UHGV virus genome: UHGV-0324336
Source of the DNA: a virus
Direction: 5' to 3' (one strand)
DNA length: 45,108 nucleotides
The notes below the pieces were generated by a model. The model was given only the letters and a program-made list of their open reading frames with translations, had not been told where the DNA came from and ran no database searches. The position numbers and the translations under genes are program-made. Positions within the stretch are counted from its first letter, which is position 1. Each line of letters starts with the position of its first letter. This document shows, one piece after another, positions 3,926 to 20,704 of this stretch.

Positions 3926-4424
3926 CTTCAATGCAATAATCGTAAAACGCCGCAAACTGCTCATCGCGGCGTTTTTTTTCATCTTCAGAAGGAATCAGCA
4001 CCAACAATTTTTTATTCAGATCAGCGACGCTGCTCTCCAGTTTTTCAATGGGCGATTCAATATCATCTTTTTCTGACCGCAATGCCGTCGGTGGCGTCTT
4101 CAGAGAACCTGTAATTCTTCCCGGTAGCTTTCCTTTGTAGGTTATCCACACATTCTGCGCCTCTAAAATTACCGGGCGCTTTTCCGGCGACAGCTCATCT
4201 CCTTCACATAACCCGGCAGCAACATCCAGGAAGAACTGTCTGATGCTCCTTCTCGCTGCTGCCTCATAAAACTCCAGCGCGGCACCTTCAACACGGTCCA
4301 GCGAGATGTCCAAGCCAAAAATTTCACCGTCAAAGCGTTTTTTGTCCCGTAACGCTAAAGTTACCGTAACTTTATTCTCAAAATTGCGGATCCCTTTCAC
4401 AATCAGTTCATAGTTTTGAGTCAT
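3873..4424 (-). CDS. hypothetical 183-aa protein between holin and endolysin (YdfR position)
   Basis: ORF track; start 5 nt after holin stop; same position as ydfR between essQ and rrrQ in Qin; no motif recognised. Confidence 0.6.
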   Translation of the reverse strand: MTQNYELIVKGIRNFENKVTVTLALRDKKRFDGEIFGLDISLDRVEGAALEFYEAAARRSIRQFFLDVAAGLCEGDELSPEKRPVILEAQNVWITYKGKLPGRITGSLKTPPTALRSEKDDIESPIEKLESSVADLNKKLLVLIPSEDEKKRRDEQFAAFYDYCIEVTRRNFVKIFEEGKSLQ

Positions 4425-4428
4425 TGAA

Positions 4429-4644
4429 TTACTCTCCCCGTGCAGCCTTACGCTTGTCTTCTCTGATTTTGAAGTACAGATTTGTCAGATAAGTCAGGAA
4501 GCCCAGAACCAGACTCCCCAGTACACCAATCGCAGCCCACTGTGACGGACTGACCTGATCAAGCCACTGTAAAAACCAGTAGCCAGCACTGCCTGCGGAG
4601 GTGCCGTAGGCAATGCCCGTTGAAATTTTGTCCATGGATTTCAT
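4429..4644 (-). CDS. class II pinholin, phage 21 S-like (dual-start MKSM)
   Basis: 71 aa; MKSMDK dual-start motif and two TM segments essentially as in S21 (recalled); directly upstream of SAR endolysin. Confidence 0.9.
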
Positions 4645-4935
4645 AGCCTCACCTCCGCAAATAACGGATGGCGTAGTTTTACACTGAGAAATGAAAGGGA
4701 TTTGAAAAGAAAAAACCGCAAAAGCGGGCGAAACGATATATACAGAAAGGAAAGCACTCTATCCAACAAACCACCCACAGTTAATCGGAATAAAAGCAGA
4801 GTGCTTATGAATGATCGCCTGCCCGAAGGTTAGTATTTCTGCACAGCAATTTTGCAAAAAAAGGCGATCATTCATAACTTAAACGTCTTTCAGTCACTCC
4901 GGGATTTCCCATCATCGCAGACTGAAAGACTCTAA

Positions 4936-5011
<76 letters not shown>

Positions 5012-5013
5012 AT

Positions 5014-5090
<77 letters not shown>

Positions 5091-5091
5091 A

Positions 5092-5168
5092 CTGGACCGC
5101 CACCGGGGACTCGAACCTCGCACACTCAACTTAAAGGGTTGACGCTCTTTCCTGATGAGCTAGTGGCG
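5092..5168 (-). tRNA. tRNA-like gene with atypical anticodon loop (CCUUUAA; Lys-UUU-like but C33); possible pseudo- or non-canonical tRNA
   Basis: Manual fold: acceptor CCGCCAC/GTGGCGG, D-arm GCTC…GAGC, T-loop TTCGAGT, CCA encoded, but position 33 is C and T-stem has an A·C mismatch. Confidence 0.5.
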
Positions 5169-5169
5169 G

Positions 5170-5245
5170 CTGGTGGCCCTTGCTGGATTTGAACCAGCGA
5201 CCTGGCGATTATGAGTCGCTCGCTCTCACCACTGAGCTAAAGGGC
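5170..5245 (-). tRNA. tRNA-Ile2/Met type (anticodon CAU), ileX/ileZ-like
   Basis: Manual fold: GGCCCTTTAGCTCAGTGGTGAGAGC…CTCATAA…GGTTCAAATCC…GGGCCACCA; closely resembles recalled E. coli ileX (lysidine tRNA-Ile2). Confidence 0.75.
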
Positions 5246-5351
5246 CGGGCGCAGGATAATAACGTTACGAAATCAATGTTGCAAGCATTCAAAAATCACC
5301 CTTATCTCCTCCACCAGCGCATTCACCATGTCTATCCGAGATAAGTGGCAC

Positions 5352-5373
5352 AAAAAACCCGCTTGTGGGCGGG
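5352..5373 (-). terminator. intrinsic terminator (tR'-like) downstream of the late promoter
   Basis: Minus strand reads CCCGC-ccacaa-GCGGG followed by TTTTTT; lies ~50-70 nt downstream of the predicted late promoter. Confidence 0.55.
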
Positions 5374-5428
5374 TTTTGTTTGCTTTTGCCATCACGTACA
5401 AAATCGGCAAAATATCAGATTTGCATGA

Positions 5429-5457
5429 AATATATGCCTTTCAATCTACTTTTGCAA
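5429..5457 (-). promoter_or_regulatory. candidate late promoter (pR'-like) with probable qut region
   Basis: Minus strand -35 TTGCAA (5452-5457), 17-nt spacer, -10 TATATT (5429-5434); immediately 3' of the Q-like gene and 5' of the terminator. Confidence 0.45.
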
Positions 5458-6130
5458 CACTTTGCTTTGAAAATGCCGCCTTTTGTTTTGAACGTGTTCT
5501 CATTACAAACAATAAAGCCTCACTATCAAGTCGGTGAAAAATGTGTTTCATTGCAACCCAGTGACGAGTAAATGTTTTGGACCAGTTTTTAGTTGTCACT
5601 CCCGCCAGTAATGCCAGCTCCTGGTATTCATAACCTTCCCCACCAAAAAGTTCTGCTTTTACTGCCTGCGCCGCCAGCCAGATTAATTTTTTCAGGCGTT
5701 CCTGCGTTTTCCCTGCAATTTTTCTGGTACCGGATTGAGTATTAAATTCATTCCACGCCCACTGTGTTATCGCGATCTGATATTCCCAACAAATAATCCC
5801 GCTGTAACACCACAACAACCAGGCTTTATGATGTTCTTCAAGAGACAGAACTGCCCGTCGCCATGATGATGTCGAAAACTCAACCTGACTTACCAGAGCA
5901 ATTGATGAGCCTTTCGCCAGTGATTGTTTTCCCGGTATCGGTGGACTATCCCGCGTTATCATTCTTCCAGTCACTTCATCGCGGTACCGGATTTTTTTAC
6001 GCCTGTAACGCCCTGTATCAAACATGGCATTCTCCTGCCAGGCTTCAAGCTGACCTTTTGTTGCCCCACTCAAATCAGCGGTAGCGATAATGAGCTGCTC
6101 ACGCACAAACTGTAAATACTGGTTATTCAT
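5441..6130 (-). CDS. putative late-gene antiterminator Q-family protein (229 aa)
   Basis: Position after rusA and before the late promoter/terminator and lysis genes; ATGA overlap with rusA; family not confirmed from sequence. Confidence 0.5.
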   Translation of the reverse strand: MNNQYLQFVREQLIIATADLSGATKGQLEAWQENAMFDTGRYRRKKIRYRDEVTGRMITRDSPPIPGKQSLAKGSSIALVSQVEFSTSSWRRAVLSLEEHHKAWLLWCYSGIICWEYQIAITQWAWNEFNTQSGTRKIAGKTQERLKKLIWLAAQAVKAELFGGEGYEYQELALLAGVTTKNWSKTFTRHWVAMKHIFHRLDSEALLFVMRTRSKQKAAFSKQSVAKVD

Positions 6131-6486
6131 GCGCGCTCCAGTTCTGTGATTTTTATCCCCAGCCGACCACCAGGAACAGGCAGTCCGCGCACAATATTGA
6201 TTTCATCAAACTGCTCGTCGTCTATGAGAAGTCCGGCATGCGTCAGCGCATCCAGTGGTGCCTTCAGGATATTGTCCAGGTCGCGGCGGCGCTTATCCGG
6301 TGGCTCTGCAATAATTTTTATTGCCAGCCTTCCGGACAGGTTTAATTTCAACCGCTGCTGGCGAACAATTAGTGCCACATCACGGCGATAACGCTCACCG
6401 ACTTTTGATACAAAATATGTGTTGCCACGACGTCGCCAGTAAGTATTCACCGTCGGCGGATAAGGCAAAACAAACTCTATACGCAT
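6127..6486 (-). CDS. rusA: RusA-family Holliday-junction resolvase
   Basis: 119 aa; PDxRRRDLDN…LDAL…GxxxDD motifs match RusA (120 aa, …RRRDLDNLQKAAFDALT… as recalled). Confidence 0.85.
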   Translation of the reverse strand: MRIEFVLPYPPTVNTYWRRRGNTYFVSKVGERYRRDVALIVRQQRLKLNLSGRLAIKIIAEPPDKRRRDLDNILKAPLDALTHAGLLIDDEQFDEINIVRGLPVPGGRLGIKITELERA

Positions 6487-6498
6487 CAGTAACCTCTT

Positions 6499-7620
6499 TT
6501 ACCCGAGCACGCCGGTTGCAAAGGCGTGATCAAGAAAACGAAAAATTAAATCAACCTGGGAACCATGCTTTTCTTCGAACGCCAGCGGATCCGCATGAAG
6601 TTCGTTGTGATGTTCCCGGCACAACGGTAGCGTGAAAATATCGTGGGCCTTTGTTCCCATCCCTCCCTGACCGTGACCAATCAGGTGATGGGGATCGTCG
6701 GCTGGCTGACCACAACACGCACACGGCTGTGTCTTCACCCAGCGCGTATATTTCTCATTTACCCAACGGCGACGTTTAGGTCGCCTCATGAAAGATTCCG
6801 GAGACTCCGGATCAACGGTGATGCATACCACCGTCTTTTCCTGTGGTGGGTTCTGTTGCTGGTGGGCATGAGGCAACGGCGCAAGATTTTTTGTGCGCTG
6901 CTTCAGTATGCTGGTGGTGGTCTGCTCTCCCGGTACGATGTCGCTTTCGCGGTACAAGGAGCGGATTTTTTCCGCACGTAACCCCAGAGAACGACGTAAT
7001 ACTGCCTCCGGAAGCGCGTCCGCCACCTGATTGCAGACCGCCCACCAGGATAATTCAGCCAGCGACAATTCCCGCTCCTGCGTGCCATTCATTGCATGGC
7101 GTATGACGTCAATCATCCATGCTGACAGGTTTTGATGAGCAAGTTGCCCGAGTGATTCGGATGTCTGGTCACGCAACTGGTTGTCGCAGTGCCAGCACAA
7201 CACCATCGCGCCGGTACCGTAACAATGTATGACGATTTCACTGTGATGATAGTCACCATGAGGCCACTGGCAGGATTTGACATGACGCAACAGCCAGTCA
7301 GACAGTGCCCCAGCGCCGCCAGCAGCACGAATCACCCGCTCATCGCTGAAAAATGGCAGTAATGATTTATCCTCCGCCAGCGGCTGGCGAACGGCAGGGA
7401 CGACTCCGGACGGCAAACCGCGCATGCTTTTCGGTTCAGGCTCCACCAGCACTCGAGGGTTATGAAATACTTGCATGGATTCACGGCCCGGCCTAAGGAC
7501 CACCAGCCCGAGTTCCGGTACCAGAACAGGTCGAAGTAATATCCGCACGTTACCTCCAGATCCGTTGCTGGTATGTGCGGGATGGGCGCGGTGGGCGTTC
7601 GGAATAAGGGAGCCTGACAT
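6499..7620 (-). CDS. HNH-motif protein, DUF968/YdfU-like (start uncertain; alternative ATG at 7476)
   Basis: C-terminal CACCG…DPHHL…GG…N…CREHHNELH is a typical HNH/ββα-Me arrangement; position matches ydfU in Qin. Confidence 0.5.
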   Translation of the reverse strand: MSGSLIPNAHRAHPAHTSNGSGGNVRILLRPVLVPELGLVVLRPGRESMQVFHNPRVLVEPEPKSMRGLPSGVVPAVRQPLAEDKSLLPFFSDERVIRAAGGAGALSDWLLRHVKSCQWPHGDYHHSEIVIHCYGTGAMVLCWHCDNQLRDQTSESLGQLAHQNLSAWMIDVIRHAMNGTQERELSLAELSWWAVCNQVADALPEAVLRRSLGLRAEKIRSLYRESDIVPGEQTTTSILKQRTKNLAPLPHAHQQQNPPQEKTVVCITVDPESPESFMRRPKRRRWVNEKYTRWVKTQPCACCGQPADDPHHLIGHGQGGMGTKAHDIFTLPLCREHHNELHADPLAFEEKHGSQVDLIFRFLDHAFATGVLG

Positions 7621-7828
7621 AGATTATCCAGTGACGATAATCGAGGCTGAGGGCTTTCTTAATCTCGTATCCGCGTCTGCGATAGTTATGAATTAGCCAT
7701 TCGGCCTGTTCTTCAGTACATGGGTCATGCTGGAACCAGTCAGATTTGAAAGTGCGGGAACGCCGCCCGTGCCTGCTGGCAAAGACGGCAGAATCATCAG
7801 AATTGTGTAATTTGGTATCGTGCGCCAT
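7550..7828 (-). CDS. hypothetical protein (92 aa from MAHDTK start), rem position
   Basis: ORF track 7550..7909; the upstream part of that ORF overlaps a strong terminator, so the ATG at 7828 is preferred. Confidence 0.3.
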   Translation of the reverse strand: MAHDTKLHNSDDSAVFASRHGRRSRTFKSDWFQHDPCTEEQAEWLIHNYRRRGYEIKKALSLDYRHWIIYVRLPYSERPPRPSRTYQQRIWR

Positions 7829-7898
7829 CGGTTGTCTCTGCTGGCGCAGCAGGTGCCAGTTGTTCAGGCTGGCGTGCGAATTGTAAACCAGAATGCCA

Positions 7899-7926
7899 GG
7901 AAAAAACAAAACCCGCCGAAGCGGGT
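7899..7926 (-). terminator. intrinsic terminator downstream of lipoprotein moron
   Basis: Minus strand ACCCGC-ttcg-GCGGGT followed by TTTGTTTTTT. Confidence 0.6.
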
Positions 7927-8124
7927 ATGCTAAAACAAACTGAAAGTAATATACCGGACTTGTAAAGGAACGATAGAATAATTATTGGATTAAACCCTGA
8001 CTCAATCCAGATTTCATAGGCAACAACTACGGACTAATCATCACAGTCATGTTTGATAGACTTAGTCCACATTGGGTGAGGGTTTACGGCGTTTTCACTA
8101 ATAATTTATCGTCCAAGCTATACA

Positions 8125-8517
8125 CTACTGCCCTGTTTTAACGAAGTTTTTAAAGGAAACAACTGCCTGATAGGGGTTTGGTTGACAGCCAAACATATTA
8201 TCGCAAAAAGGCTTGATGAAAATTCTTGAGGATCCATCTTCATTTGGCATTTTACTCACTTGATAAGCGAGGAATGGACTATTTGGAGAGGGATTATAAG
8301 TGGAAATTAGCGTGTCTGTCGCCGTTTGAATTTTCCATGAGGAATTATTAGCCAACCAGAATTGCGCTCGTTTCCAATAAAAGTCACATTGCTTTTCATC
8401 ATTACATGTTAGTGGCTTCATTGCTTCTGCTTTCAACGCTGGATCGACCTTTGCTGCACACCCTCCCAACATTACTGTTGCAATCATTACACCTGCGACT
8501 AAAACAAGTTTCTTCAT
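8125..8517 (-). CDS. secreted lipoprotein (moron), function unknown
   Basis: Signal peptide MKKLVLVAGVMIATVMLGGC with lipobox LGGC; several Cys in mature part; flanked by terminators. Confidence 0.7.
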   Translation of the reverse strand: MKKLVLVAGVMIATVMLGGCAAKVDPALKAEAMKPLTCNDEKQCDFYWKRAQFWLANNSSWKIQTATDTLISTYNPSPNSPFLAYQVSKMPNEDGSSRIFIKPFCDNMFGCQPNPYQAVVSFKNFVKTGQ

Positions 8518-8570
8518 CTCCCTGCCCCATCAATAAAAGTTCGGTTCTCTAATAACTAGAGTTAATCAAC

Positions 8571-8592
8571 GGAAAAAACGCCGAAGCGGGTT
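8571..8592 (-). terminator. weak intrinsic terminator 3' of hok
   Basis: Minus strand CCCGC-ttcg-GCG followed by TTTTTT; short stem. Confidence 0.35.
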
Positions 8593-8660
8593 AAGTGCGG
8601 GTGCGTTGAGGATGCCTGACACATCAGAGGTGGCGAGGGATTTCTCCCCCGCCAGGTCTC

Positions 8661-8816
8661 TTACTCCTCAGGTTCGTAAGCTGTGAAGACAGCGACCTCC
8701 GTCTGGCCGGTTCGGATTCGTACCTCGCAGAGGTCTTTCCTCGTTACCAGTGCCGTCACAATGACGGTTAAACAGATGACGATCAGGGCGATTAACATCG
8801 CCTTTTGCTGCTTCAT
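8661..8816 (-). CDS. hok: Hok/Gef-family type I toxin (51 aa)
   Basis: MKQQKAMLIALIVICLTVIVTALVTRKDLCEVRIRTGQTEVAVFTAYEPEE matches the Hok consensus (…CLTLL…LTRKSLCEIR…REVAAFMAYE); in-frame upstream extension in the ORF track may be mok-like. Confidence 0.8.
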   Translation of the reverse strand: MKQQKAMLIALIVICLTVIVTALVTRKDLCEVRIRTGQTEVAVFTAYEPEE

Positions 8817-9463
8817 AGCCTGCTTCTCCTTGCCTTTCGGCACGTAAGAGGCTAACCTAGATTTGCCGTTCATAGATTGAGCCTCAGATTAATGTTAAGC
8901 GTCTTGCAGGACGCGTAATGTTAACTGGGGCTTTTCTCTATCTGCCTTTGGTGTTCATGCCTGAGGCAGATAGCCTCAAGCACCCGCAGCAATTCTACTT
9001 AACTCACGTCACCTCGCCAATATAAAATCAATCAGAAAGGCGATCCATAAGAACAACAGCAAGGCAATAAATTGCCATTACAGCAGCAATAGCCAGCGCA
9101 CATTTGAGAACCAGCACCACAACCTCCTGTATTGGACGTACACCAGTCCTGATAAATATGAGGCTGTCTCGTCAGTGATTCAATACAACTATTGGGTATA
9201 GTTTCTGTGATTTTGTTCTGTAGAAATGGAACACAACAACCAGTCACCACCAGCACTTCTTTAAATACGCCAAGTCCGACGCAAGCTAACTTTCTAGTCC
9301 GCTTTGAGCGAGAAGAGGAAGTTCATAATTATTACCAGTACAGCGTATTACTAATTATTTTTACACTGAAAGCATTGAGGTGAGAAGGGGGTTTTTATGC
9401 TTGATTTAATTATAAAATTGCAGGAAAGTGACCTTGTATCAGCTGATGATGAGTGGGTAAAAA

Positions 9464-10843
9464 ATGTGGAAAGATAAGTATATTTGTCATAAATGCGTGA
9501 ACGATAAATATGTCATGCAGCATATAATAAAAACCGGAAATAATGTTCGGATTTGCTCTTACTGCAAAAGGAAGCGTAAAAACATCCACCTCAAATATAT
9601 TCTCAAGATGATGAATGAGGTTTTTGAGTACTACTATGATATGTATGAGGATATCTATGATTCCGGGCGCGGTGATAGCGCGCAGGATGTCATCTGCGGA
9701 GAACTGGGCGTCGAATGGGACGTAGCTGAAGATATTTATGAATTTCTTTGTGATGAATATAATCCGCATAACGATTATGACTACATCCGGTATAATGATG
9801 GGTTTGTTTATCGGCACATAAATCACTATAGCGGAGAGCTTGCGCATACCTGGAGTAAAGCCACTGACTCCCTTATGAAAGAAACACGATATTTTAACCG
9901 TGAAGTTAATGATTTCCTGGATTCACTTTTCAGTGATATCGATAAACTAAAAAACAGAGACAGTAATTCACCGATAAAAACTCTGACTGATGAGGTTCAT
10001 CTTTTTCGTGCAAGGGTCTTTGAGGACCAAGAGGAAGTAAAGCAAGCCTTGGAGCAGCCCGAGAAAAATTTTGGACCTCCCCCATCAACTTTGGCTCGGT
10101 CGGGCCGTATGAACGCACAGGGGATTTCAGTATTTTACGGTGCAACCTCAGTGAATTTGGCAATTGCTGAAGTAAGGCCGCCCGTCGGCAGTATTGTAGT
10201 AACGGCCTGTTTTGTACCGTTACGCGAGCTAAAAGTGCTGGACATTTCTGCCCTTGACTCGATTAGTTTCGGCTCAGGTAGTAAATTTGATCCTCAGACT
10301 CGCAAAACCAGTGAGCGCGCGATTTTTTTCAGTACGCTTTCCCGTAAGTTGACGCTTCCTACTTTTGGAAAAAGGCAGGACAGTGATTACCTCATCACCC
10401 AAGTGGTTGCCGATTACCTAGGTGACCGAAATAAATTTAAGCTTGATGGTGTCAGCTTTAAATCTACCCAGGTAGATGCCAACGGTGAGGATGCTGAGAT
10501 AGGATATAATGTCGTTCTGTTTAATAAGTCTTCCGGCGTCAGGCATGCCGCAGATAAATCTCGCCGATATAATGTTGAGATGTATGAACACATCGAAGAT
10601 GACCAGTATGCTTTTGTTCCGGAAATTCAGTTAATAGTTGAGGAACAAATAAAACCGAGACATATGGGTTCATTTTCATCCTCGCATGACAAAAATGATG
10701 CACTACTGTTGAAAACCAACAGTATGACTTATCATAAAATTACTGGTGTAAAATACCAAACAAGTGAGACGGAGATTCATCAGGGAGATAGTGTTCGAAA
10801 ACAAGAGCCACCTCAGAAATTCGATGACCTGATGGACTTCTGA
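9464..10843 (+). CDS. RES-domain protein (putative NAD+-targeting effector) with N-terminal CxxC…CxxC zinc-ribbon domain
   Basis: Candidate RES triad R215 (GRMN), E236 (LAIAEV), S331 (DGVSFKS) with intervening YG; N-terminal C8-x2-C11…C31-x2-C34; AT-rich codon usage. Confidence 0.65.
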   Translation: MWKDKYICHKCVNDKYVMQHIIKTGNNVRICSYCKRKRKNIHLKYILKMMNEVFEYYYDMYEDIYDSGRGDSAQDVICGELGVEWDVAEDIYEFLCDEYNPHNDYDYIRYNDGFVYRHINHYSGELAHTWSKATDSLMKETRYFNREVNDFLDSLFSDIDKLKNRDSNSPIKTLTDEVHLFRARVFEDQEEVKQALEQPEKNFGPPPSTLARSGRMNAQGISVFYGATSVNLAIAEVRPPVGSIVVTACFVPLRELKVLDISALDSISFGSGSKFDPQTRKTSERAIFFSTLSRKLTLPTFGKRQDSDYLITQVVADYLGDRNKFKLDGVSFKSTQVDANGEDAEIGYNVVLFNKSSGVRHAADKSRRYNVEMYEHIEDDQYAFVPEIQLIVEEQIKPRHMGSFSSSHDKNDALLLKTNSMTYHKITGVKYQTSETEIHQGDSVRKQEPPQKFDDLMDF

Positions 10844-11257
10844 TCATCCGTTATATCAGGGTAAACTATTATTAAAGATGATGTGAGGGCAGTTAAGGAA
10901 GGAATTCACCCTGTATCGCCTGTATCGCGTTACTGGCGTCCCTTGATACCAAGCGGGCAGATTGGTGAACAGGCACGTCTGTTTGAGCGAGGAGCTGGCT
11001 TTGTAGAATGCCTCAAGGGATAAAAACACCTTATTTACGCAACTTACTGCGAAAGGACCATGGCTTTGCTGGCTTCGGATACGTTGCTGAGTTCCTCAGC
11101 CACCTTAAGTAACCGGCGTTGTGTTTGATGATAGGATTGTTAGTATGGAATATGAGAATTACCTCTTGTATTGTATAACACTTCGGCCCCATATCAATAC
11201 CAGTAACTCTTAATCTTTCAAAGCCATGTGTCAGATCAAGTCACGACTAATGCAAAT

Positions 11258-11288
11258 AATAGACAGATATCATTCTAATCTGTCTATT
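11258..11288 (-). terminator. perfect 11-bp inverted repeat hairpin between convergent genes
   Basis: AATAGACAGAT-(9 nt)-ATCTGTCTATT, 17 nt 3' of the HExxH gene stop; AT-rich, no clean U-tract. Confidence 0.35.
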
Positions 11289-11304
11289 ATTATGTCAAAA
11301 TTAT

Positions 11305-12228
11305 TTAGTGTAATTCCGAAAGGAGCCTAGTAACAAACTCTTTATATGTTGTAGCTTTATAATCAAGCTTACGGTTTTCCTGTCTCATCACCGCGATGAG
11401 AAGACAAGCTGTAAAACACCAGAAGGGCGATGAATCTGAAAGGTTGTACCCCCCTATCATTGTTTGAATCCTTACTGCTATAGATGGATACTCTTCACCA
11501 CCCCATTTATCGATATCTGATGTTAAAGCGTGTATAGTAAAGGCGGCAAGTGTTATCCCCATTGCTCGTTTTTGCATGACCTCTTCATAGGTATGCCCAG
11601 CTTTTTTAGCATAGACTCCGACGCCCTTAGTTATATATTCACGAGCCCAAGAGTCACAGGCTAACTCTTCTTCATCCTTCTCTTGGGGATTTTCATGTTT
11701 TTTTTCTTCGGCTCGTGCTTGAACATGTTTATACTCATGAAGTATAGAAAAAGACAATGCTAATGCTACTAGATCAAAAACAGCCTGTTCTTGAATATTA
11801 TTCAAACTATCTCGCGCATCTGTTGGAAAAGGAATATCTTGAGGCCATGTAATATCAGCCGTATTCGCAACGCTTAGCAAAGACTTTGAAATATACAAAT
11901 GCTGTTTATAATTTAGTTCAAATTGGCCACGTTCTTCATCAGATTCTAAAGCCGACTCTAACGTCACACCTAGTAAGCATGCTTTTACTAGGGCTGGAGC
12001 ATATGTCTCAATCGTAAACCATGTACTAAACCCAAATAACCAAAAGAAATCGATAGTTTTAGAGTCAAACTCGATGCGCCTACTAGTTGCATTCATTGTT
12101 GATCCTAGGGCATCCTCTGCAAGTTCGACCGTGTGTTTATAGCTCTTCCAGGTCTGACAAAGTTCATCAGCATTCTCAGGAACAGCCCCTCTTAGGAGGT
12201 TTAAAACTATAGTATCTAGTGATGGCAT
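11305..12228 (-). CDS. putative zinc metallopeptidase (HExxH), possibly Lit-like phage-exclusion protease
   Basis: Single HEYKH motif at residues 164-168 of 307 aa; size and motif position close to e14 Lit (297 aa, HExxH ~160-164, recalled); AT-rich. Confidence 0.5.
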   Translation of the reverse strand: MPSLDTIVLNLLRGAVPENADELCQTWKSYKHTVELAEDALGSTMNATSRRIEFDSKTIDFFWLFGFSTWFTIETYAPALVKACLLGVTLESALESDEERGQFELNYKQHLYISKSLLSVANTADITWPQDIPFPTDARDSLNNIQEQAVFDLVALALSFSILHEYKHVQARAEEKKHENPQEKDEEELACDSWAREYITKGVGVYAKKAGHTYEEVMQKRAMGITLAAFTIHALTSDIDKWGGEEYPSIAVRIQTMIGGYNLSDSSPFWCFTACLLIAVMRQENRKLDYKATTYKEFVTRLLSELH

Positions 12229-12605
12229 AAAACTGACTCCTTATTCTACTTGTTATAAAACAACGATGTTATGTTAATCACCTATTTTAGATGTTCATAG
12301 AATTCTTAAGACATCAATCATAGCAAAATAAAAAGCATATAGTGCTATATTAAACCACTAGCAAAAATGAATATAAAATGTGGTTTTGTCCGTTCCAGCC
12401 ACAAGCGATCAAGGGAGAGGAATGAGGTTTTCAATGAGCGTATAGTAAGCATTTTCATTACAACTTAGAAGCATCGAGTAAATATCATTACTAATCCAAT
12501 ATGACTATGATGAACTAAGCTTCAGATTTATAATTATCATCATAACTAGAAGCTAGGTTGCTGAAAAGGAAGTCAATAGCATCCCTTAACTTAAAACCTA
12601 TGATT

Positions 12606-13139
12606 CTATATTCCTTTTTTATAATCTCTAGACAAAAAATCAAACAGGACTTTACGTTTGTAAAGTAACGTAACCCTTACATTTTCAAGATCTGACTCCT
12701 TAATATCAGGTTTGCCATCATAATAATTTCTCCGCATTGCTTTTAAATAATCACCGTAGTCTCTTAAAGCAACTGATGTGTCAGTTAAACCTAAAAGCAA
12801 AAGCTTCGACTCTGCAACTGTCAAGCTTTTAAAATTGTCAAATAAATCTAATTTTGTTTTATTTAACTCCTCTTGCCTTTCTCTGGTAAGATCCAATCCC
12901 TTTTGTTCCTTATTTCTAACCCATTCAATTATCAAAGCCCAATAGCGTAAGGATATATGTGTCATATCCTCAATTTGAGTGCTTACAGATTCTAATGAAT
13001 CATAATAGCGACGACTTTTATCTTTATCAAATTCATGTTTGTGATTCATTTTTGAAATAATAAATGTACCTGTCAGCGTTATTATACCACCAAATCCAAT
13101 CTTCACAGCCGTATCAACAACTTCCACCCAGGTTGTCAT
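12606..13139 (-). CDS. hypothetical membrane-anchored protein (177 aa)
   Basis: N-terminal TM helix (VKIGFGGIITLTGTFIIS) then charged helical domain; AT-rich island gene with own upstream gap. Confidence 0.55.
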   Translation of the reverse strand: MTTWVEVVDTAVKIGFGGIITLTGTFIISKMNHKHEFDKDKSRRYYDSLESVSTQIEDMTHISLRYWALIIEWVRNKEQKGLDLTRERQEELNKTKLDLFDNFKSLTVAESKLLLLGLTDTSVALRDYGDYLKAMRRNYYDGKPDIKESDLENVRVTLLYKRKVLFDFLSRDYKKGI

Positions 13140-13424
13140 CCAAAACTACCTCTTGATGTTATTAAACACTCTACTAAACCAATGCATTGGAAACTAATTA
13201 TTTCTTACGCAAATACATATTCTAATATTATGTCTTCTACTAGAACCAAAATCAATCATTAGTGAAAGTGAAATAAAAGCGACATGGGCATAATGCTGCT
13301 GAGTATTGATCAGCAATTAGTTATGGATGAACGTCCTCTCTTGGCACAAAGCGGACAACCACGCTAGCTCTACCCTGTGCCACAAAATGTCAATTTGCAT
13401 CTGAACTAATGCACTTTAATCTCG

Positions 13425-13847
13425 TCACTTCAATAAATACCGAACATCCCCCTGATAAAACGACAATATGCGCTGCATAACTTCACTCTTCCGGCACTCG
13501 CGACAGATTATGTTCTGACGCCTGTCGTAGCGACGTATTTCTCCGTCAGGTAATGACCAGATAAGGTCCGGATCAACCGCAGATGGTTTCTTCAGCTTTG
13601 CCCTTGAGAGCTTTTTACGGGCATTTTGCCAGTCCTTACGCGCCTGTTCAGACGGGAATAACCCGTAACCAGAGTTGTATACATCGCCGCTGGCAACCAG
13701 CTCTCTTGCGAGAACGCTCATCAGATATCTTGTCGCACCTGTTTTGACTTCCAGTTGCCGTAACGTCTCACGCCCACTCTGGCGTACGAGTTCAACAACC
13801 TGCCCTTTAATTTTTTCTCGCTCTTCTTGTGTAAAAACTTTTGCCAC
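13425..13847 (-). CDS. hypothetical protein (140 aa) downstream of replication initiator
   Basis: ORF track; possible winged-helix segment; occupies the position of a helicase loader but has no Walker motifs. Confidence 0.45.
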   Translation of the reverse strand: MAKVFTQEEREKIKGQVVELVRQSGRETLRQLEVKTGATRYLMSVLARELVASGDVYNSGYGLFPSEQARKDWQNARKKLSRAKLKKPSAVDPDLIWSLPDGEIRRYDRRQNIICRECRKSEVMQRILSFYQGDVRYLLK

Positions 13848-13887
13848 AAGTCCTCCTGAAAATTACCTCATGACCAGAAATCAACAC

Positions 13888-14964
13888 TTACCCCCTGAAG
13901 CCCGGTGGAATTTCGGTATCCGGTTCAGAAATATGATTCACACAACGCTGGTTGTTCGTGCCGCTTACCGGGAGCAGCCAGGGGTTTTCAAAATTCCGGT
14001 CCGGTCCAAAAAACGTCGTTGCTCGCTGAACAAATTCCGTTCCCGTTTTCCCGGTAGCCGCAAGGTATCTTGCGTAACGCCTCACGCCATCCAGCATGGC
14101 CTCTGGTGACACCCCCTCGCGTAATCTGGCCTTCCAAGCACTGAAAGCGGATTTCTTCGGGTTTGCCCCAGCACGCAACGGGTATTCCCGCCAGACCTGT
14201 TCGAACACATCCGGATAATCCACTCGTCCCACAGGCTGCCCGGTGTTTTCCGGGACTACCCGATCGGCTTCCCGCTGAATGGCGGAATCGGCTTCAGGCT
14301 GCTGCAGTTGGTGTGATTGCTCCGGCCTTGCGGTCATCACCTGCTGCACAGCGCCCGAATCGGCTTTCAGCGCATACGCTGAATCGGCTTCCGGTGTCGT
14401 GCCTGCTGGCTGACCAAGATTGACGGTCTGAACATCCCCTGCCTGGTTCGTGGCGTTTTTTACGCCATGGACCATAGTGTTTTGATCTTCTTGATCTGTA
14501 TCTTTATCTGTATCTTTATCTGTCGTGACTCGTCGTGACATGTGCGTGACATTTCGTGACGCACCGTGACAATCGCCATTTTGTTCCCGCTTTCTTTCCC
14601 TCTCTCGCTGCGCCCTCTTGCGCTCTGCAGGAGATTTTGCGGTTTGCGAAATATTGCCGTTGTCCTCTTTAAGAACCTGGCGTTTTTCCCATCCAGTGAT
14701 TAAATCACCATCAAGTACCCGCCCCTGCATCGTCTGCAAAATTGAATCAATTACCTCTTCTGTCACGTCGAGCGCACTTGCCAAATCTTCTGTCGTGACA
14801 TCAATGTGACCTCGCGTGACATTTCGTGACGCGCTCACCAGGAGGTGGATATACACTGCCATCACTGTTGCAATTGGCTGCCCTGACACCCTAGCAATTG
14901 TTCGCCACTTAGGGTCATTTGGCATGTCATGCCATAATCTGAGCCAAGCGTTAGCCATACTCAC
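13888..14964 (-). CDS. replication initiator / replisome organiser (lambda O-like role)
   Basis: Position after cro/YdaT module; N-terminal HTH-like region; two iteron clusters inside the ORF as in lambdoid ori-within-O. Confidence 0.65.
   Translation of the reverse strand: MSMANAWLRLWHDMPNDPKWRTIARVSGQPIATVMAVYIHLLVSASRNVTRGHIDVTTEDLASALDVTEEVIDSILQTMQGRVLDGDLITGWEKRQVLKEDNGNISQTAKSPAERKRAQRERERKREQNGDCHGASRNVTHMSRRVTTDKDTDKDTDQEDQNTMVHGVKNATNQAGDVQTVNLGQPAGTTPEADSAYALKADSGAVQQVMTARPEQSHQLQQPEADSAIQREADRVVPENTGQPVGRVDYPDVFEQVWREYPLRAGANPKKSAFSAWKARLREGVSPEAMLDGVRRYARYLAATGKTGTEFVQRATTFFGPDRNFENPWLLPVSGTNNQRCVNHISEPDTEIPPGFRG
14524..14570. repeat. iteron cluster 1 (5 x CGTGAC at 10-11 bp spacing), candidate ori
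   Basis: CGTGAC at 14524, 14534, 14545, 14555, 14565; preceded by TATCTTTATCTG tandem repeat (14491-14523). Confidence 0.6.
14794..14830. repeat. iteron cluster 2 (4 x (C/T)GTGAC at ~10 bp spacing)
   Basis: CGTGAC at 14794, TGTGAC 14805, CGTGAC 14815, CGTGAC 14825. Confidence 0.5.
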
Positions 14965-15029
14965 CTCTTCTGATACCGAATCTTTTTACTCACGAGTTGC
15001 CGGAAGCGATTCGATATGGCTATTGTCAG

Positions 15030-15455
15030 TCAATGTACTGCCACAGCATTTCCTGCCGGGCCACCACGGTTCATCTGATTGAAACCGGCGATTGCCACTG
15101 CGACAAAATCATCAGCGTCTCTCACCAATCGCTCCCGCGTCTCCACCAGCTCCCGAAAATAAGCTGAACTGTGGCTGCGCATTCTGGCCACCAGCAAAGG
15201 TGGCATTGCCTTTTCGATCGCTGGTAACAACGCCTGAATTTTTTCAACTGCATCAGGGGTGTCTTTCTCTACCCAGCGGAAAATTTTCTGGGTATTGCGA
15301 GCCAGGGCTTCCGGATGGCTGTCGTCATACAGTTCAGGAAACGTCATACCCAACTCAAAATAAGCCTGGGTTATTCCAGCTGCTGGAACTTTTTCGCCAT
15401 CAGGACGCGCCCAGGCATTCATCGCCATGCGGATGTGTTCATGCTTGATTTTCAT
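15030..15455 (-). CDS. YdaT-family protein (Rac YdaT-like; proposed CII-like regulator/toxin)
   Basis: 141 aa, starts MKIKHEHIRMAMNAWA…; ATGA-coupled to the cro-like gene as ydaS-ydaT are in Rac (recalled). Confidence 0.55.
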   Translation of the reverse strand: MKIKHEHIRMAMNAWARPDGEKVPAAGITQAYFELGMTFPELYDDSHPEALARNTQKIFRWVEKDTPDAVEKIQALLPAIEKAMPPLLVARMRSHSSAYFRELVETRERLVRDADDFVAVAIAGFNQMNRGGPAGNAVAVH

Positions 15456-15682
15456 GAATCCCCCCCTTGGTTAGAAGGCGGATTATGATCAGAACCGGGA
15501 ATGACAACCGTCGGTATGTGTAACTCATATTTGAGCGCCCCGGCAGTGACTGCCTGAATTAGCAACGCCCATTTCCACGGAACCTCTTCCCCCCACATGC
15601 TGACTGTGGTTTTTGACGTTCCTAGAGCTGCGGCTGTTTTAACAACTCCGCCAAAATAGCCTAATACTTCTGATTTTTTCAT
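15452..15682 (-). CDS. Cro/YdaS-like HTH regulator (76 aa)
   Basis: MKKSEVLGYFGGVVKTAAALGTSKTTVSMW… HTH; GGAG 6 nt upstream of ATG at 15682; divergent from cI. Confidence 0.7.
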   Translation of the reverse strand: MKKSEVLGYFGGVVKTAAALGTSKTTVSMWGEEVPWKWALLIQAVTAGALKYELHIPTVVIPGSDHNPPSNQGGDS

Positions 15683-15710
15683 AAGTCGCTCCATAAAACT
15701 GAACGCCAAA

Positions 15711-15773
15711 ATTTTAATAATCAAAACCAAAGAAAGTCAAGAAACAAAACCATCTGTGTTTTAAAATCAAAAC
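15711..15773. promoter_or_regulatory. OR-like operator region between cro and cI
   Basis: ATTTTAATAATCAAAAC (15711-15727) and GTTTTAAAATCAAAAC (15758-15773, abutting cI ATG): inverted half-sites GTTTT/AAAAC. Confidence 0.45.
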
Positions 15774-16400
15774 ATGAGCAAGCAAACAATATCTGAACGC
15801 ATAACCCAACGTATGCATGCGCTAAACCTGAAAGGCAAAGACCTTGTCAATGCCACTGGCGCATCAAAAGGCTCCGTAAGTCAATGGATGAACGGTGGAG
15901 GAGCGCCGTCCTCGCGTTACATAAGTTCACTGGCAAAGATATTGAAAGTAAACGAAAATTGGCTTCTTAATGGAGGAGAGTTAAATACAGGTGATTCGCT
16001 TGATCTATCTTTACCGCCGATAAAAACGGTTCCGCTACTATCAGCAAGCTGGAGTGATTATATGAAAAATTCCTCAATAACCTCTTGTGTGCAGCTTGTC
16101 GGAGAAATCCCGGCCAATACCTTTGCAGTTGTTCTAGAGAGTGACAGTATGTCAACATCTGGTGGGGGAGTTTCCATCCCAAATGGTTCAACAGTTTTTG
16201 TTGATCCCGATCGAACCGTACAACCAGGAAATATTGTCCTTGCCTTACCCAAAGGGACCACAACACCTGTCATTCGTAAACTGGAGATAGAAGGGCCGGA
16301 TATTCTTTTAGTCCCCACGAATCCTCGCTACCCTTCAATTATGCTGGATGATCTATCTTGCATATTGGGCGTATGCTTTAAAATTCAACAAGATATTTAA
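15774..16400 (+). CDS. CI-like prophage repressor (HTH_XRE + S24 LexA-type autopeptidase)
   Basis: N-terminal HTH (ATGASKGSVSQWMNG); C-terminal S24 signature with Ser in ESDSMS and Lys in VIRKL. Confidence 0.85.
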   Translation: MSKQTISERITQRMHALNLKGKDLVNATGASKGSVSQWMNGGGAPSSRYISSLAKILKVNENWLLNGGELNTGDSLDLSLPPIKTVPLLSASWSDYMKNSSITSCVQLVGEIPANTFAVVLESDSMSTSGGGVSIPNGSTVFVDPDRTVQPGNIVLALPKGTTTPVIRKLEIEGPDILLVPTNPRYPSIMLDDLSCILGVCFKIQQDI

Positions 16401-16466
16401 CCAACCTCATCTATTTGATTAACTGTATGCCATCGTGGTGATGGCTTAACAGCTGCCTGCTTAAAA

Positions 16467-16512
16467 TGTTTTGATAAAAAACATTGACCTGAAAAGTTCA
16501 TTTTTCTAAGCT
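16467..16512 (+). promoter_or_regulatory. OL/pL-like operator-promoter for the ydfA-dicB early operon
   Basis: Palindrome ATGTTTTgataaAAAACAT (16467-16485) resembling the OR sites, overlapping -35 TTGACC (16484-16489), 17-nt spacer, -10 TAAGCT (16507-16512). Confidence 0.4.
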
Positions 16513-16691
16513 TCATTCATTCCCTCACCCCACCCCACAGAATGCAGGGCAATACTTCGAGTTACCAGGCAGTGGTCAGGGGTTAAGTAGCCAGCCCGAG
16601 GCGTAAGAACATGACGGCAGGGTTCAACTTTAATAACTATGCAGCAGGTTTTTGTTCCGCTACCCCGGCGTTAAGGGGAAATGAGGTCAAC

Positions 16692-16847
16692 ATGGATACT
16701 ATCGATCTTGGCAACAACGAATCTCTGGTGTACGGCGTGTTTCCCAACCAGGACGGCACATTCACCGCGATGACGTATACCAAAAGCAAAACGTTTAAAA
16801 CCGAAAATGGTGCCCGTCGCTGGCTGGAAAGAAACTCAGGTGAGTGA
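16692..16847 (+). CDS. ydfA: YdfA-like small protein (51 aa)
   Basis: MDTIDLGNNESLVYGVFPNQDGTFTAMTYTK…; GAGG 5 nt upstream; first gene of dicB-type operon by synteny. Confidence 0.6.
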   Translation: MDTIDLGNNESLVYGVFPNQDGTFTAMTYTKSKTFKTENGARRWLERNSGE

Positions 16848-16848
16848 T

Positions 16849-16977
16849 ATGGATTTCGACACAATCATGAAAAAGGCTTACGAAGAATACTTCGAAGGCC
16901 TTGCCGAAGGCGAAGAAGCTCTCAGCTTCAGTGAGTTTAAACAGGCGCTTTCCAGCTCGGCAAAATCTAACGGCTGA
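16849..16977 (+). CDS. ydfB: YdfB-like small protein (42 aa)
   Basis: Translated by hand (below ORF-track cutoff): MDFDTIMKKAYEEYFEGLAEGEEALSFSEFKQALSSSAKSNG; size and position as ydfB. Confidence 0.5.
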   Translation: MDFDTIMKKAYEEYFEGLAEGEEALSFSEFKQALSSSAKSNG

Positions 16978-17006
16978 TAAGCGAAGCAGCACCGCGAGGA
17001 ATCAGT

Positions 17007-17225
17007 ATGCAGAAACGAGAACCCGTCATCATCGCGCCAGACTATACCGATGATGAACTTTATGAGTGGATGCGCCAGAAAATTAATGCAGCGCAGGATC
17101 TGAAATGGGCCAATGAAGCCAGGGCTAAGCAGGCTGAAAATCTGTCCGCTCTGGAGCAGGATATCACCAGGCTGGAAAAAGCAGCGGCATTAAGCATTGC
17201 CAGAATGATTACATACCCGCGTTAA
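17007..17225 (+). CDS. ydfC: YdfC-like protein (72 aa)
   Basis: ORF track; AGGA 6 nt upstream; 72 aa as K-12 YdfC; synteny ydfA-ydfB-ydfC-dicF-dicB. Confidence 0.55.
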   Translation: MQKREPVIIAPDYTDDELYEWMRQKINAAQDLKWANEARAKQAENLSALEQDITRLEKAAALSIARMITYPR

Positions 17226-17565
17226 TAGCTAACCAACGAAGCTAAGGTTGGTAATTAAGGAGTTCTCCACGGGTGAGGTGGAGTGCGTGCGCCGGACACG
17301 GGTGAGCATCCGGCACTGACAGTTTACTGAAAGGATATTTCCCTGAAAAGTCAGACCATAACGCGAAAGCGCACGGCGAGGTAGCTGGTTCATAGATAGC
17401 CTGTCGTTAAATTATCGTCGACCGTGCGCTTCCGGTTGTGGCACTCCGCGAAATGGCGCGGCGGTAAGTATGGCGGGGTTATTCCTTCACCGTTGAGGAC
17501 ACCGGGTTGTCAGGTTGACCATACGCTTAAGTGACAACCCCGCTGCAACGCCCTCTGTTATCAAT

Positions 17566-17623
17566 TTTCTGGTGACGTTTGGCGGTATCAGTTTTACTCC
17601 GTGACTGCTCTGCCGCCATTTTT
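17566..17623 (+). ncRNA. dicF: DicF small regulatory RNA (ftsZ-targeting)
   Basis: TTTCTGGTGACGTTTGGCGGTATCAGTTTTACTCCGTGACTGCTCTGCCGCC + T-run matches recalled 53-nt DicF; located between ydfC and dicB as in Qin. Confidence 0.75.
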
Positions 17624-17792
17624 AAAGTGAATTTTGTGATGCGGTGAATGCGGCTAAGCGCACGCGGAACAGTTAAAACCAAAAACAGTGTTATGGGTGG
17701 ATTCTCTGTATCCGGCGTTAATTGTTAACTGGTTAACGTCACCTGGAGGCACCAGGCACCGCATCACAAAACTCATTGTTGAGGGCGCGATA

Positions 17793-17981
17793 ATGAAAAC
17801 GTTATTACCAAACGTTAATACGTCTGAAGGTTGTTTTGAAATTGGTGTCACTATCAGTAATCCTGTATTTACTGAAGATGCCATTAACAAAAGAAAACAC
17901 GAACGGGAGTTATTAAATAAAGTATGCATTGTTTCAGTGCTGGCCCGTTTACGTCTGATGCCAAAAGGATGTGCACAATGA
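17793..17981 (+). CDS. dicB: DicB cell-division inhibitor (62 aa)
   Basis: MKTLLPNVNTSEGCFEIGVTISNPVFTEDAINKRKHERELLNKVCIVSVLARLRLMPKGCAQ; 62 aa, downstream of DicF. Confidence 0.8.
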   Translation: MKTLLPNVNTSEGCFEIGVTISNPVFTEDAINKRKHERELLNKVCIVSVLARLRLMPKGCAQ

Positions 17982-18169
17982 ATCCAGTATTTGCACTTAT
18001 TCTGACGGTTTTTCTTGTTTCCGGAGAGCCAGTTGATATTGCAGTCAGTGTTCACAGAACAATGCAGGAATGTATGGCAGCAGCAACCGAACAGAAAATT
18101 CCAGGCAACTGTTATCCGGTCGATAAAGTTATTCACCAGGATAATAACGAAATCCCGGCAGGATTTTAA
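17978..18169 (+). CDS. ydfD: YdfD-like small membrane protein (63 aa)
   Basis: MNPVFALILTVFLVSGEPVDIA… with N-terminal TM; ATGA overlap with dicB stop. Confidence 0.7.
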   Translation: MNPVFALILTVFLVSGEPVDIAVSVHRTMQECMAAATEQKIPGNCYPVDKVIHQDNNEIPAGF

Positions 18170-18262
18170 AACAGCACCGTAATAAATATCCAGTTTCATT
18201 CTTATATGTCAGCAATGGCAGAGATTTGTTCACCCTTAAATCTGTGATGAGGTTTACCAATA

Positions 18263-20704
18263 ATGAGCACTGATAAAGAAGAATTTGCACTATATTGCGA
18301 AGCAAAAAATGACAAAGTAAGAAAACGCCTAGGAATTAAAGGTGGTTTTTACTGGACTACAGCAAAAAAATTATCTGTTGCAATCTCCCGCTGCATTACC
18401 GCAATGGATGACAACGATTATGATGAAGACGACTTTAAAAAACCCGTCCGCGTCAATTTGCCCGTTGTTGACGACCTTCCGCCAGAAGGCGTGTTTGATA
18501 CTGAATTCTGCAACCGCTATGAAAAAGGCGGGAAAGATGGCATCACAATGACATTTATCGGCCCTTCCCCCTCTGTTCAGGACAAACCAGCCAGCACTGA
18601 CAATACCAACATCAACGGCGAAGACATGACTGAGATTGAGGAGAGCATGCTTCTGCCTGTCTCCGGTCAGGAACTGCCCATTCGTTGGCTTGCTCAACAC
18701 GGCAGCGAAAAACCAGTAACGCACGTTTCACGCGACGAACTCCAGGCATTACACATTGCACGGGCTGAAGAACTACCGGCTGTTACTGCCCTGGCTATTT
18801 CGCATAAAACCAGTCTGCTCGACTCGCTGGAGATTCGCGACCTCCACAAACTGGTTCGTGACACTGACAAAGTTTTCCCTAATCCTGGTAATTCAGACCT
18901 GGGACTAATAACTGCTTTTTTCGAAGCATACCTGGACGCTGACTACACTGATCGGGGTCTGCTGACAAAAGAGTGGATGAAAGGAAATCGTGTTTCACGC
19001 ATCACCCGCACGGCTTCCGGTGCTAATGCTGGCGGTGGGAACAAAACCGATCGCAATCCGAATTTAGTACACACCCTCGACACACTGGATGTGGAGATTG
19101 CAGCAGCCACACTTCCGATGGATTTTAATATTTATGAAATTCCGGGCAGCGTTTATCGTCGCGCAAAAGAAGTAGTCCTGAACAAAGAAAGTCCGTTCAA
19201 AGAATGGTCCGCAGCACTTCGTGCAACCCCGGGTATTCTGGACTATTCCCGCGCCGCTATTTTTGCACTTATCCGAAGCGCACACCCTGAATTTTATCAC
19301 TACCCGGGACGCCTTCAGGGGTATATCAACGCCTATTTGACGGAAACTGATCACGAGAACCCCAGCAAGGAAACTCTCACAGCTGCCCGGCATACGCCGG
19401 AAAAAGATATCCTGGAAGAAATTAACCGCGAGGTGGTTACTGAGCGTGAAACAGAAGAAGAAAAACCACAACCATCTGACGCAATGGCAGGTGAACAGGC
19501 AACAACTGAAACAATGGAACCGGATACAACTGAACATGGCCAGAACGCGCAGTCGCTGGATGCTCAGTCGCAGGTGAGTTCCGCTAACCAAGTAAAAGTC
19601 ACCGCTGACGAAGTAAACAAAATTATGCAGGCAGCCAATATCAGCCAGCCTGACGCCGATAAGTTACTTGCTGTATCGCGTGGTGAATTTGTTGAGGGGA
19701 TTAGCGACCCTAATGATCCGAAATGGGTCAAGGGGATCCAGACTCGCGATTCTGTGAACCAGAACCAGCATGAATCGGAACGGAACGACCAAAAAGCGGA
19801 ACAAAACAGCCCAAATGCGTTACAAAACGAGCCAGAAACGAAACAATCCGAACCAGTAGCGCAACAGGAACCGGAAAAAGTCTGCACCGCCTGCGGTCAG
19901 AGCGGTGGCGGCAACTGCCCTGATTGTGGCGCGGTGATGGGCGACGCAACATACCAGGAAACATTCGATGAAGAGAATCAGGTTGAAGTTCAGGAAAATG
20001 ATCCGGAGGAAATGGAAGGCGCTGAACATCCACACAAGGAGAACCCTGGCGGCAATCAGCATCACGCCAGCGATAATAAAACTGGCGAGGCGACAGATCC
20101 CTTAATTAAGGTGAATGGTCATCATAAGCTCACATCCACCAGCAGAGCGGGGATTCATCTGATGATCGACCTTGAAACCATGGGAAAAAATCCCGATGCC
20201 CCAATTATCTCAATAGGCGCAATATTTTTCGATCCACAAACCGGAGATATGGGACCGGAATTTAGCAAGACCATCGATCTGGATACTGCTGGCGGAGTCA
20301 TTGATCGTGACGTCATTAAATGGTGGCTAAAGCAATCACGTGAAGCGCAGTCTGCCATTATGACCGATGAAATCCCGTTAGATGATGCACTACTGCAATT
20401 GCGGGAATTTATCGACGAAAACTCCGGTGAATTTTTTGTTCAGGTCTGGGGTAATGGGGCCAACTTCGACAACGTGATTTTACGCCGTTCATACGAACGA
20501 CAGGGTATCCCCTGCCCGTGGCGCTACTGCAACGATCGCGATGTACGCACAATCGTTGAGCTGGGGAAAGCCATAGACTTCGATGCCAGAACTGCTATCC
20601 CATTCGAAGGTGAGCGCCATAATGCACTTGATGACGCTCGTTACCAGGCAAAATACGTTTCAGCTATCTGGCAAAAACTGATCCCGAGTCAGGCTGATTT
20701 TTAA
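18263..20704 (+). CDS. RecE/YdfE-family protein with C-terminal DEDDh 3'-5' exonuclease domain (813 aa)
   Basis: C-terminal DnaQ-like motifs: DLETMG (Exo I), NGANFD (Exo II), HNALDDARY (Exo III); acidic low-complexity middle; CTACG…CPDCG zinc-ribbon-like element. Confidence 0.65.
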   Translation: MSTDKEEFALYCEAKNDKVRKRLGIKGGFYWTTAKKLSVAISRCITAMDDNDYDEDDFKKPVRVNLPVVDDLPPEGVFDTEFCNRYEKGGKDGITMTFIGPSPSVQDKPASTDNTNINGEDMTEIEESMLLPVSGQELPIRWLAQHGSEKPVTHVSRDELQALHIARAEELPAVTALAISHKTSLLDSLEIRDLHKLVRDTDKVFPNPGNSDLGLITAFFEAYLDADYTDRGLLTKEWMKGNRVSRITRTASGANAGGGNKTDRNPNLVHTLDTLDVEIAAATLPMDFNIYEIPGSVYRRAKEVVLNKESPFKEWSAALRATPGILDYSRAAIFALIRSAHPEFYHYPGRLQGYINAYLTETDHENPSKETLTAARHTPEKDILEEINREVVTERETEEEKPQPSDAMAGEQATTETMEPDTTEHGQNAQSLDAQSQVSSANQVKVTADEVNKIMQAANISQPDADKLLAVSRGEFVEGISDPNDPKWVKGIQTRDSVNQNQHESERNDQKAEQNSPNALQNEPETKQSEPVAQQEPEKVCTACGQSGGGNCPDCGAVMGDATYQETFDEENQVEVQENDPEEMEGAEHPHKENPGGNQHHASDNKTGEATDPLIKVNGHHKLTSTSRAGIHLMIDLETMGKNPDAPIISIGAIFFDPQTGDMGPEFSKTIDLDTAGGVIDRDVIKWWLKQSREAQSAIMTDEIPLDDALLQLREFIDENSGEFFVQVWGNGANFDNVILRRSYERQGIPCPWRYCNDRDVRTIVELGKAIDFDARTAIPFEGERHNALDDARYQAKYVSAIWQKLIPSQADF

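Follow-up and report, generated by a model that had tools for sequence, protein, structure and literature searches.

A RES-domain gene in a lambdoid prophage

The UHGV virus genome UHGV-0324336 is a lambdoid prophage of 45,108 nucleotides (referred to here as the window), 99.8% identical to a prophage of E. coli PF9285 over 4089-21204, the interval to which that match is confined, the rest being different DNA. Within this interval lies a gene for a large protein with a RES domain. An earlier sequence-only reading of the window had proposed that this gene is a single-gene abortive-infection enzyme that destroys nicotinamide adenine dinucleotide (NAD+), in which a sensor is fused to an effector. 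The gene, its domains and the features around it are listed in Table 1.

Table 1. Coordinates of the RES-domain gene, its domains and surrounding features in the window (aa, amino acids; nt, nucleotides; pLDDT, predicted local distance difference test score).
Feature	Position	Strand	Details
aRES coding sequence	9464-10843	+	ATG start, 459 aa plus stop
Cys4 zinc ribbon (C8, C11, C31, C34)	9464-9583	+	residues 1-40; model pLDDT >90
HEPN/RES-NTD1	9584-9943	+	residues 41-160; modelled winged-helix-like core ~43-118, then two helices
RES (ADP-ribosyltransferase-fold) NAD+ phosphorylase domain	9974-10546	+	residues 171-361
Beta-rich C-terminal region	10547-10840	+	residues 362-459
26-aa upstream open reading frame	9397-9477	+	good Shine-Dalgarno-like sequence; overlaps aRES start codon
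Promoter-like bipartite motif	9401-9429	+	TTGATT-N17-GAAAGT; consensus TTGAWW-N11-TTRYNR-GAMAKT
Mobile single-gene cassette	9296-11078	+	168 nt upstream + aRES gene + 235 nt downstream
hokD/sok type I toxin-antitoxin locus	8661-8985	-	Pfam Hok E=3e-23; Rfam sok 111.7 bits
Lit-family peptidase U49 gene	11305-12228	-	convergent to aRES; HEYKH zinc motif at residue 164

Direct translation confirms the RES signature in the order that had been read from the DNA, with R215 within GRMN, Y225-G226 and E236 within LAIAEV, and the Pfam RES family (PF08808) matches residues 207-361 well above its cut-off (53 bits against 23.2, E=5.2e-14). The active-site serine had to be reassigned. DGVSFKS begins at residue 328, and S331, the residue originally proposed, is variable in an alignment of 60 full-length relatives on which conservation was scored; S334 is at least 90% conserved and is the serine in question. 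The key residues of the domain are R182, R184, R215, Y225, E236, S334 and N349. Its closest structural matches are the NAD+ phosphorylases MbcT and NatT. Neither phmmer nor a 20-sequence profile found RES structures among the PDB sequences, as the sequence similarity to the RES toxins is too low for phmmer or hmmsearch to detect them.

The cysteine module that had been noticed at the N-terminus is present as C8-x2-C11-x19-C31-x2-C34 and appears as a zinc ribbon in the structure model. For the domain that follows it, HEPN/RES-NTD1 (NTD1), the profile search gave a divided answer: with the single sequence in hmmscan, PF18870 matches residues 29-147 below threshold (21.1 bits against a cut-off of 27.4, E=4e-4), but 50 of the 60 aligned relatives match it, the best with E=4.6e-11. 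The RES profile matches all 60. In the models the N-terminal domain is predicted to adopt a winged-helix-like fold, and structure comparison places FtsK-gamma, SelB and Z-alpha among its matches. The RES domain is flanked by extensions of ~170 aa on the N-terminal side and ~100 aa on the C-terminal side. In the structure model the latter has strands at 369-378, 381-390 and 414-425, with pLDDT of 85-90 across 411-440; no Pfam family matches residues 362-459. None of the models in PADLOC v2, NCBIfam or PHROGs match the 459-aa protein.

The gene encodes the prototype aRES

Stand-alone RES proteins were described under the name "aRES" in a preprint of 28 January 2026 (Osterman et al, bioRxiv 10.64898/2026.01.28.702374; hereafter Osterman et al, 2026). 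Residues 1-399 of the product of 9464-10843 are identical to aRES of E. coli UC5 (IMG 2729545185, Table S4 of the preprint), the last 399 nt of the gene (10445-10843) are identical to the preprint's integration construct, and its two cloning primers agree with the ends of the gene (9464-9497 and 10816-10843); the match to the UC5 protein covers these three parts. The gene encodes the prototype aRES, and the defence system was already described in January 2026. The UC5 protein has the same domains and is likewise stand-alone, and nothing in the protein differs. Over the 399 residues compared, the other two assayed aRES proteins are more distant, that of E. chengduensis being 75% and that of K. 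pneumoniae ~45% identical.

In the preprint aRES proteins are defined as stand-alone proteins of 300-600 aa that combine RES with PF18870 (hhsearch probability >80%) and lie in defence islands (Osterman et al, 2026). The product has the RES domain and falls within the length range, and PF18870 is recognised by hmmscan in most of its aligned relatives, the single sequence scoring below threshold as given above. It has no operon partner, being the only gene in the cassette at 9296-11078, and it is found beside a Lit-family gene, with other copies and homologues at cargo sites of mobile elements. All six active-site residues named in the preprint (R182, R184, R215, Y225, E236 and S334) are present, and the matching UC5 protein appears in the preprint's aRES gene list. 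The Methods of the preprint give the RES accession as PF00808; RES is PF08808, and this is presumably a typographical error.

The enzymatic and phenotypic steps described here rest on this single preprint, which has yet to undergo peer review. When aRES was expressed by itself in E. coli MG1655 it protected against diverse phages, with growth arrest. Infection of aRES cells with T7 depleted NAD+ and led to accumulation of ADP-ribose-1''-phosphate (ADPR-1''-P), the loss of NAD+ occurring only during infection. When NAD+ was added to a lysate of infected aRES cells it was completely degraded, with ADPR-1''-P as the major product. The mutants R182A, R184A, R215A, Y225A, E236A and S334A were built, and mutation of the predicted active site abolished defence. 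Phage could not be rescued from aRES by NARP1 but could be by the aRad1 inhibitor proteins. NARP2, which consists of the NARP1 operon together with a Macro-domain phosphatase, rebuilds NAD+ and cancels aRES defence (all Osterman et al, 2026). The idea of a single-gene abortive-infection NADase is thus upheld by the data on the matching protein, except that the chemistry is phosphorolysis of NAD+ to nicotinamide and ADPR-1''-P, rather than simple hydrolysis.

Since the matching protein is the prototype of a system published in January 2026, little is added here as discovery, although reading of the raw sequence did correctly pick out a real single-gene NAD+-depleting immune gene. The remaining interest lies in the trigger of aRES and the mobility of the cassette. 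The preprint is silent on prophage carriage, the zinc ribbon, a trigger, a sensor and a native promoter (Osterman et al, 2026).

Comparison with known systems

The RES toxins of RES-Xre pairs, such as MbcT (6FKG), NatT (8QNL), P. putida Res (9R35) and VPA0770 (8GUG), are single-domain proteins of 144-250 aa that are neutralised by an adjacent antitoxin. While aRES shares the RES fold of these type II toxins, it is, as had been noted, much larger at 459 aa than the ~150-250 aa of a small single-domain toxin, is extended at both termini, and is activated by phage infection. The adjacent, co-transcribed Xre/helix-turn-helix antitoxin of a type II pair is missing: no such open reading frame (COG5642-type) is found on either flank or in related loci, in agreement with what had been read from the window. 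ParT (6D0H), the RES-domain ADP-ribosyltransferase of Prs, modifies a protein, whereas the reported product of aRES is free ADPR-1''-P. With SIR2/DSR, TIR in Thoeris and SEFIR, aRES shares infection-triggered depletion of NAD+ leading to growth arrest or death. The folds differ, however, and those enzymes release ADP-ribose (ADPR), which NARP1 can recycle, while the ADPR-1''-P released by aRES is unusable by NARP1.

The architecture is not unusual: it was catalogued in 2013, and aRES homologues are reported in ~4% of genomes (Osterman et al, 2026). Anantharaman et al (2013) listed HEPN/RES-NTD1 fused to RES, some of the fusions having a further N-terminal zinc ribbon (their Table 2; PMC3710099; PF18870). 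The order found here, of a zinc ribbon, a mostly helical NTD1 and RES, is the same as theirs. That study relied on computation, with no assay of function, and regarded RES as a potential RNase.

Conservation across the family

A database search gave 759 relatives, mostly of 440-500 aa and covered over their full length, many of which carry both PF18870 and PF08808. They come from Enterobacterales, Aeromonas, Pedobacter, Mucilaginibacter, Rothia and other taxa. A tblastn search of 50,697 phage records gave one distant match only, from Salmonella, at 24% identity. The residues that are invariant in the 60-sequence alignment include C31, C34, R142, R182, R184, R215, Y225, E236 and N349, and C8 and C11 reach a conservation of at least 90%. 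Mean pairwise identity is highest for RES (0.51), followed by the zinc ribbon (0.35), NTD1 (0.30) and the C-terminal region (0.21), the least conserved part. The enzymatic core has been kept while the flanking domains diverge, and their two- to three-fold lower conservation points to where the trigger would be read.

A conserved promoter-like motif upstream of the gene

The short open reading frame that overlaps the aRES start codon had been noted as the only upstream reading frame. It does exist, but it is not conserved as a reading frame, and a role as partner gene did not stand up. In a 98% allele a TGG>TGA change shortens it to 19 aa; in Klebsiella one A fewer fuses it in frame with aRES (annotated as 481 aa); and in a 74% homologue it has no ATG. 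Judged from these sequences it is probably not a gene. The run of A before the aRES ATG (9457-9463; 6001-6069 in locus L004) varies in length between alleles. In Klebsiella variicola the annotated protein is 22 aa longer at its N-terminus (481 aa); this is probably an annotation artefact, as the length of the A-run puts the upstream reading frame in frame.

What is conserved upstream of the gene is the bipartite motif. Among 10 relatives of 48-100% protein identity, the only columns before the ATG that are fully or almost fully conserved belong to its core, and wherever the protein is at least 48% identical the spacing of the motif is constant. There is a single copy in the window, where 0 are expected, and a single copy in each of 21 loci, directly upstream of the gene in every case; the pattern was derived from the same 21 loci in which it was counted. 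Of three loci outside the motif definition, two relatives of ~40% identity lack it and one nearly matches. The upstream reading frame has its ATG directly before the conserved -35-like hexamer. With only 3 of 6 positions matching in the -10-like hexamer GAAAGT (A2, A4 and T6), the motif was not listed by a sigma-70 scan. Inspection by eye gave no fit to a LexA box or to sigma-E or sigma-32 promoters, and a sigma-54 promoter was rejected in the same way, there being no GG 10 nt upstream of GC.

It would seem that 9401-9429 is a weak sigma-70-type promoter, with a putative transcription start near 9436. If so, the ATG of the upstream reading frame would lie upstream of the transcript, and both that reading frame and the apparent or annotated N-terminal extension would probably be artefacts of the promoter-like element. 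For the Tn7 construct of the preprint the coding sequence only was amplified, with a synthetic ribosome-binding site in the primer, and the genome-integrated strain was defended against T7 (Osterman et al, 2026). The upstream reading frame is therefore not needed. A function for it as an antitoxin or leader peptide was rejected on the basis of this construct and of its truncated, fused or ATG-less forms in relatives.

The gene probably moves as a single-gene cassette

The aRES gene is present in 12 of 5426 complete E. coli genomes, in three settings: lambdoid, P2-like and cryptic prophages. The window shares ~97.2% identity over 1.78 kb with two other loci, L002 and L003, and the homology ends at 9296 and 11078. 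As the homology between settings stops at these positions, the moving unit is a 1.78-kb single-gene cassette. The L003 copy is in a cryptic prophage tail remnant beside paoD/pinE. In a P2-like prophage, the L002 copy occupies the gap between the tail sheath and tail fibre genes, which we take to be the site of the Z/fun locus. The Z/fun locus has been cited as variable (10.1101/2021.01.21.427644). More distant relatives belong to the cargo of conjugative plasmids and integrative elements, and no conserved neighbour was found in 16 distinct contexts covering prophages, conjugative plasmids and integrative elements. The convergent downstream gene was considered as a partner and rejected, since Lit in the window and the proteins of 325 aa in Klebsiella and 336 aa on plasmids are mutually unrelated. 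For work on aRES, the prototype gene can be regarded as prophage cargo that moves as a cassette between lambdoid, P2-like and cryptic prophages and is found here beside a Lit-family exclusion gene.

Two homologues were observed in other surroundings. In Aeromonas caviae (L023, 4001-5392) a ~40%-identical homologue lies in a P2-like prophage between umuDC and the ogr/portal/terminase genes. It is close to the portal gene, near the gpA-gpQ hotspot, and so not far from the cos/portal-proximal hotspot, which in P2 holds old and tin. On a Rahnella-type plasmid (L009, 6443-7903) the gene after a 51%-identical homologue, in the same orientation, encodes a 486-aa FRG-domain protein (PF08867), a pairing seen in this lineage only. 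FRG is another clade of the ADP-ribosyltransferase superfamily and has been linked to prokaryotic immunity (PMC9503650).

Proposed mechanism and alternative explanations

We put at about 90% the probability that the gene is a stand-alone antiphage RES-domain enzyme, aRES, carried as cargo of a lambdoid prophage and giving protection of the abortive-infection type. According to this proposal aRES would be transcribed from its own weak promoter at 9401-9429 and would be present but inactive in uninfected cells, with no antitoxin involved. On infection by a phage such as T7 the RES domain cleaves NAD+ with inorganic phosphate to give nicotinamide and ADPR-1''-P. The NAD+ pool then collapses, growth of the infected cell stops and propagation of the phage fails. 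The sensing and autoinhibitory part would consist of the zinc ribbon, NTD1 with its winged-helix-like core and the variable C-terminal region, and the gene would spread as the 1.78-kb cassette between hotspots of mobile elements.

Two alternatives concern the enzyme itself. If the protein were a conventional RES toxin of a toxin-antitoxin pair, its antitoxin would have been overlooked; it could be the 26-aa peptide, an antisense RNA or some more distant prophage gene. The RES fold is common to MbcT, NatT and ParT, the leader DNA is conserved and the reading frame across the start codon has a strong Shine-Dalgarno-like sequence, all of which would fit such a pair. However, in close relatives that reading frame is truncated, fused or without an ATG and only the promoter-like motif is fixed; the cassette that moves between three prophage types contains one gene only; the neighbours differ in every context; and the protein alone in MG1655 depletes NAD+ only during infection (Osterman et al, 2026). 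The explanation is largely refuted already and we regard it as very improbable. Just as improbable is that aRES acts like ParT, ADP-ribosylating a host or phage protein, with loss of NAD+ as a side effect. The sharp rise of ADPR-1''-P in infected aRES cells, its formation as major product in lysate that degrades NAD+ completely, and the cancelling of defence by NARP2 through rebuilding of NAD+ (Osterman et al, 2026) all speak against this, as do the best structural matches, which are the NAD+ phosphorylases MbcT and NatT.

For the stand-alone NAD+ phosphorylase, then, the question is how infection is perceived. NTD1 is presumed to be a sensor or regulatory domain. A part in sensing or autoinhibition for the zinc ribbon, NTD1 and the C-terminal region is suggested because NTD1 is common to HEPN effectors (PMC3710099), because these parts evolve faster than the core and because the modelled N-terminal fold resembles nucleic-acid-binding winged helices. 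One version is that the zinc ribbon and winged-helix-like NTD1 act as a direct sensor of phage nucleic acid, recognising a DNA or RNA species or structure, and so free the RES domain from autoinhibition; we offer this tentatively, as the less likely version. Were it true, other proteins would use the same module together with HEPN RNase effectors. We would give even odds to activation that does not involve nucleic-acid binding, whether by docking of a phage protein on the variable C-terminal region or on the N-terminal domain, or by a host perturbation such as transcription shut-off or loss of a labile factor. Weighing against it, the combination of a zinc ribbon with a winged helix, as predicted here, is typical of nucleic-acid binders, and the structure matches include FtsK-gamma, SelB and Z-alpha.

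Neighbouring genes

The gene convergent to aRES scores 30.5 bits in Pfam (cut-off 23.9), matches the PADLOC Lit model with E=1.3e-18, and reaches 184.7 bits with the NCBIfam Lit equivalog, under its cut-off of 274. The product is a divergent Lit, and the prophage segment therefore resembles a small defence island. Between the Lit-family gene and DUF977, at 12606-13139 on the minus strand, is a gene for a 177-aa hypothetical protein, where GC is at its lowest (0.34). Pfam, NCBIfam and PHROGs gave no match for it and PADLOC only a weak one, to '2TM effector' (E=0.004); it may be another defence or moron gene. On the other side, the hokD/sok locus is directly upstream of the border of the aRES cassette.

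A cluster of four tRNA genes (Gly-tcc, Thr-tgt, Lys-ttt and one with the anticodon cat, annotated as Ile by PGAP) is found on the minus strand at 4937-5246, downstream of the gene for the Q antiterminator, an arrangement shared by many lambdoid and Stx-like prophages. Over ~25000-45108 the GC fraction climbs from ~0.44-0.49 to 0.53-0.60 and stays high.
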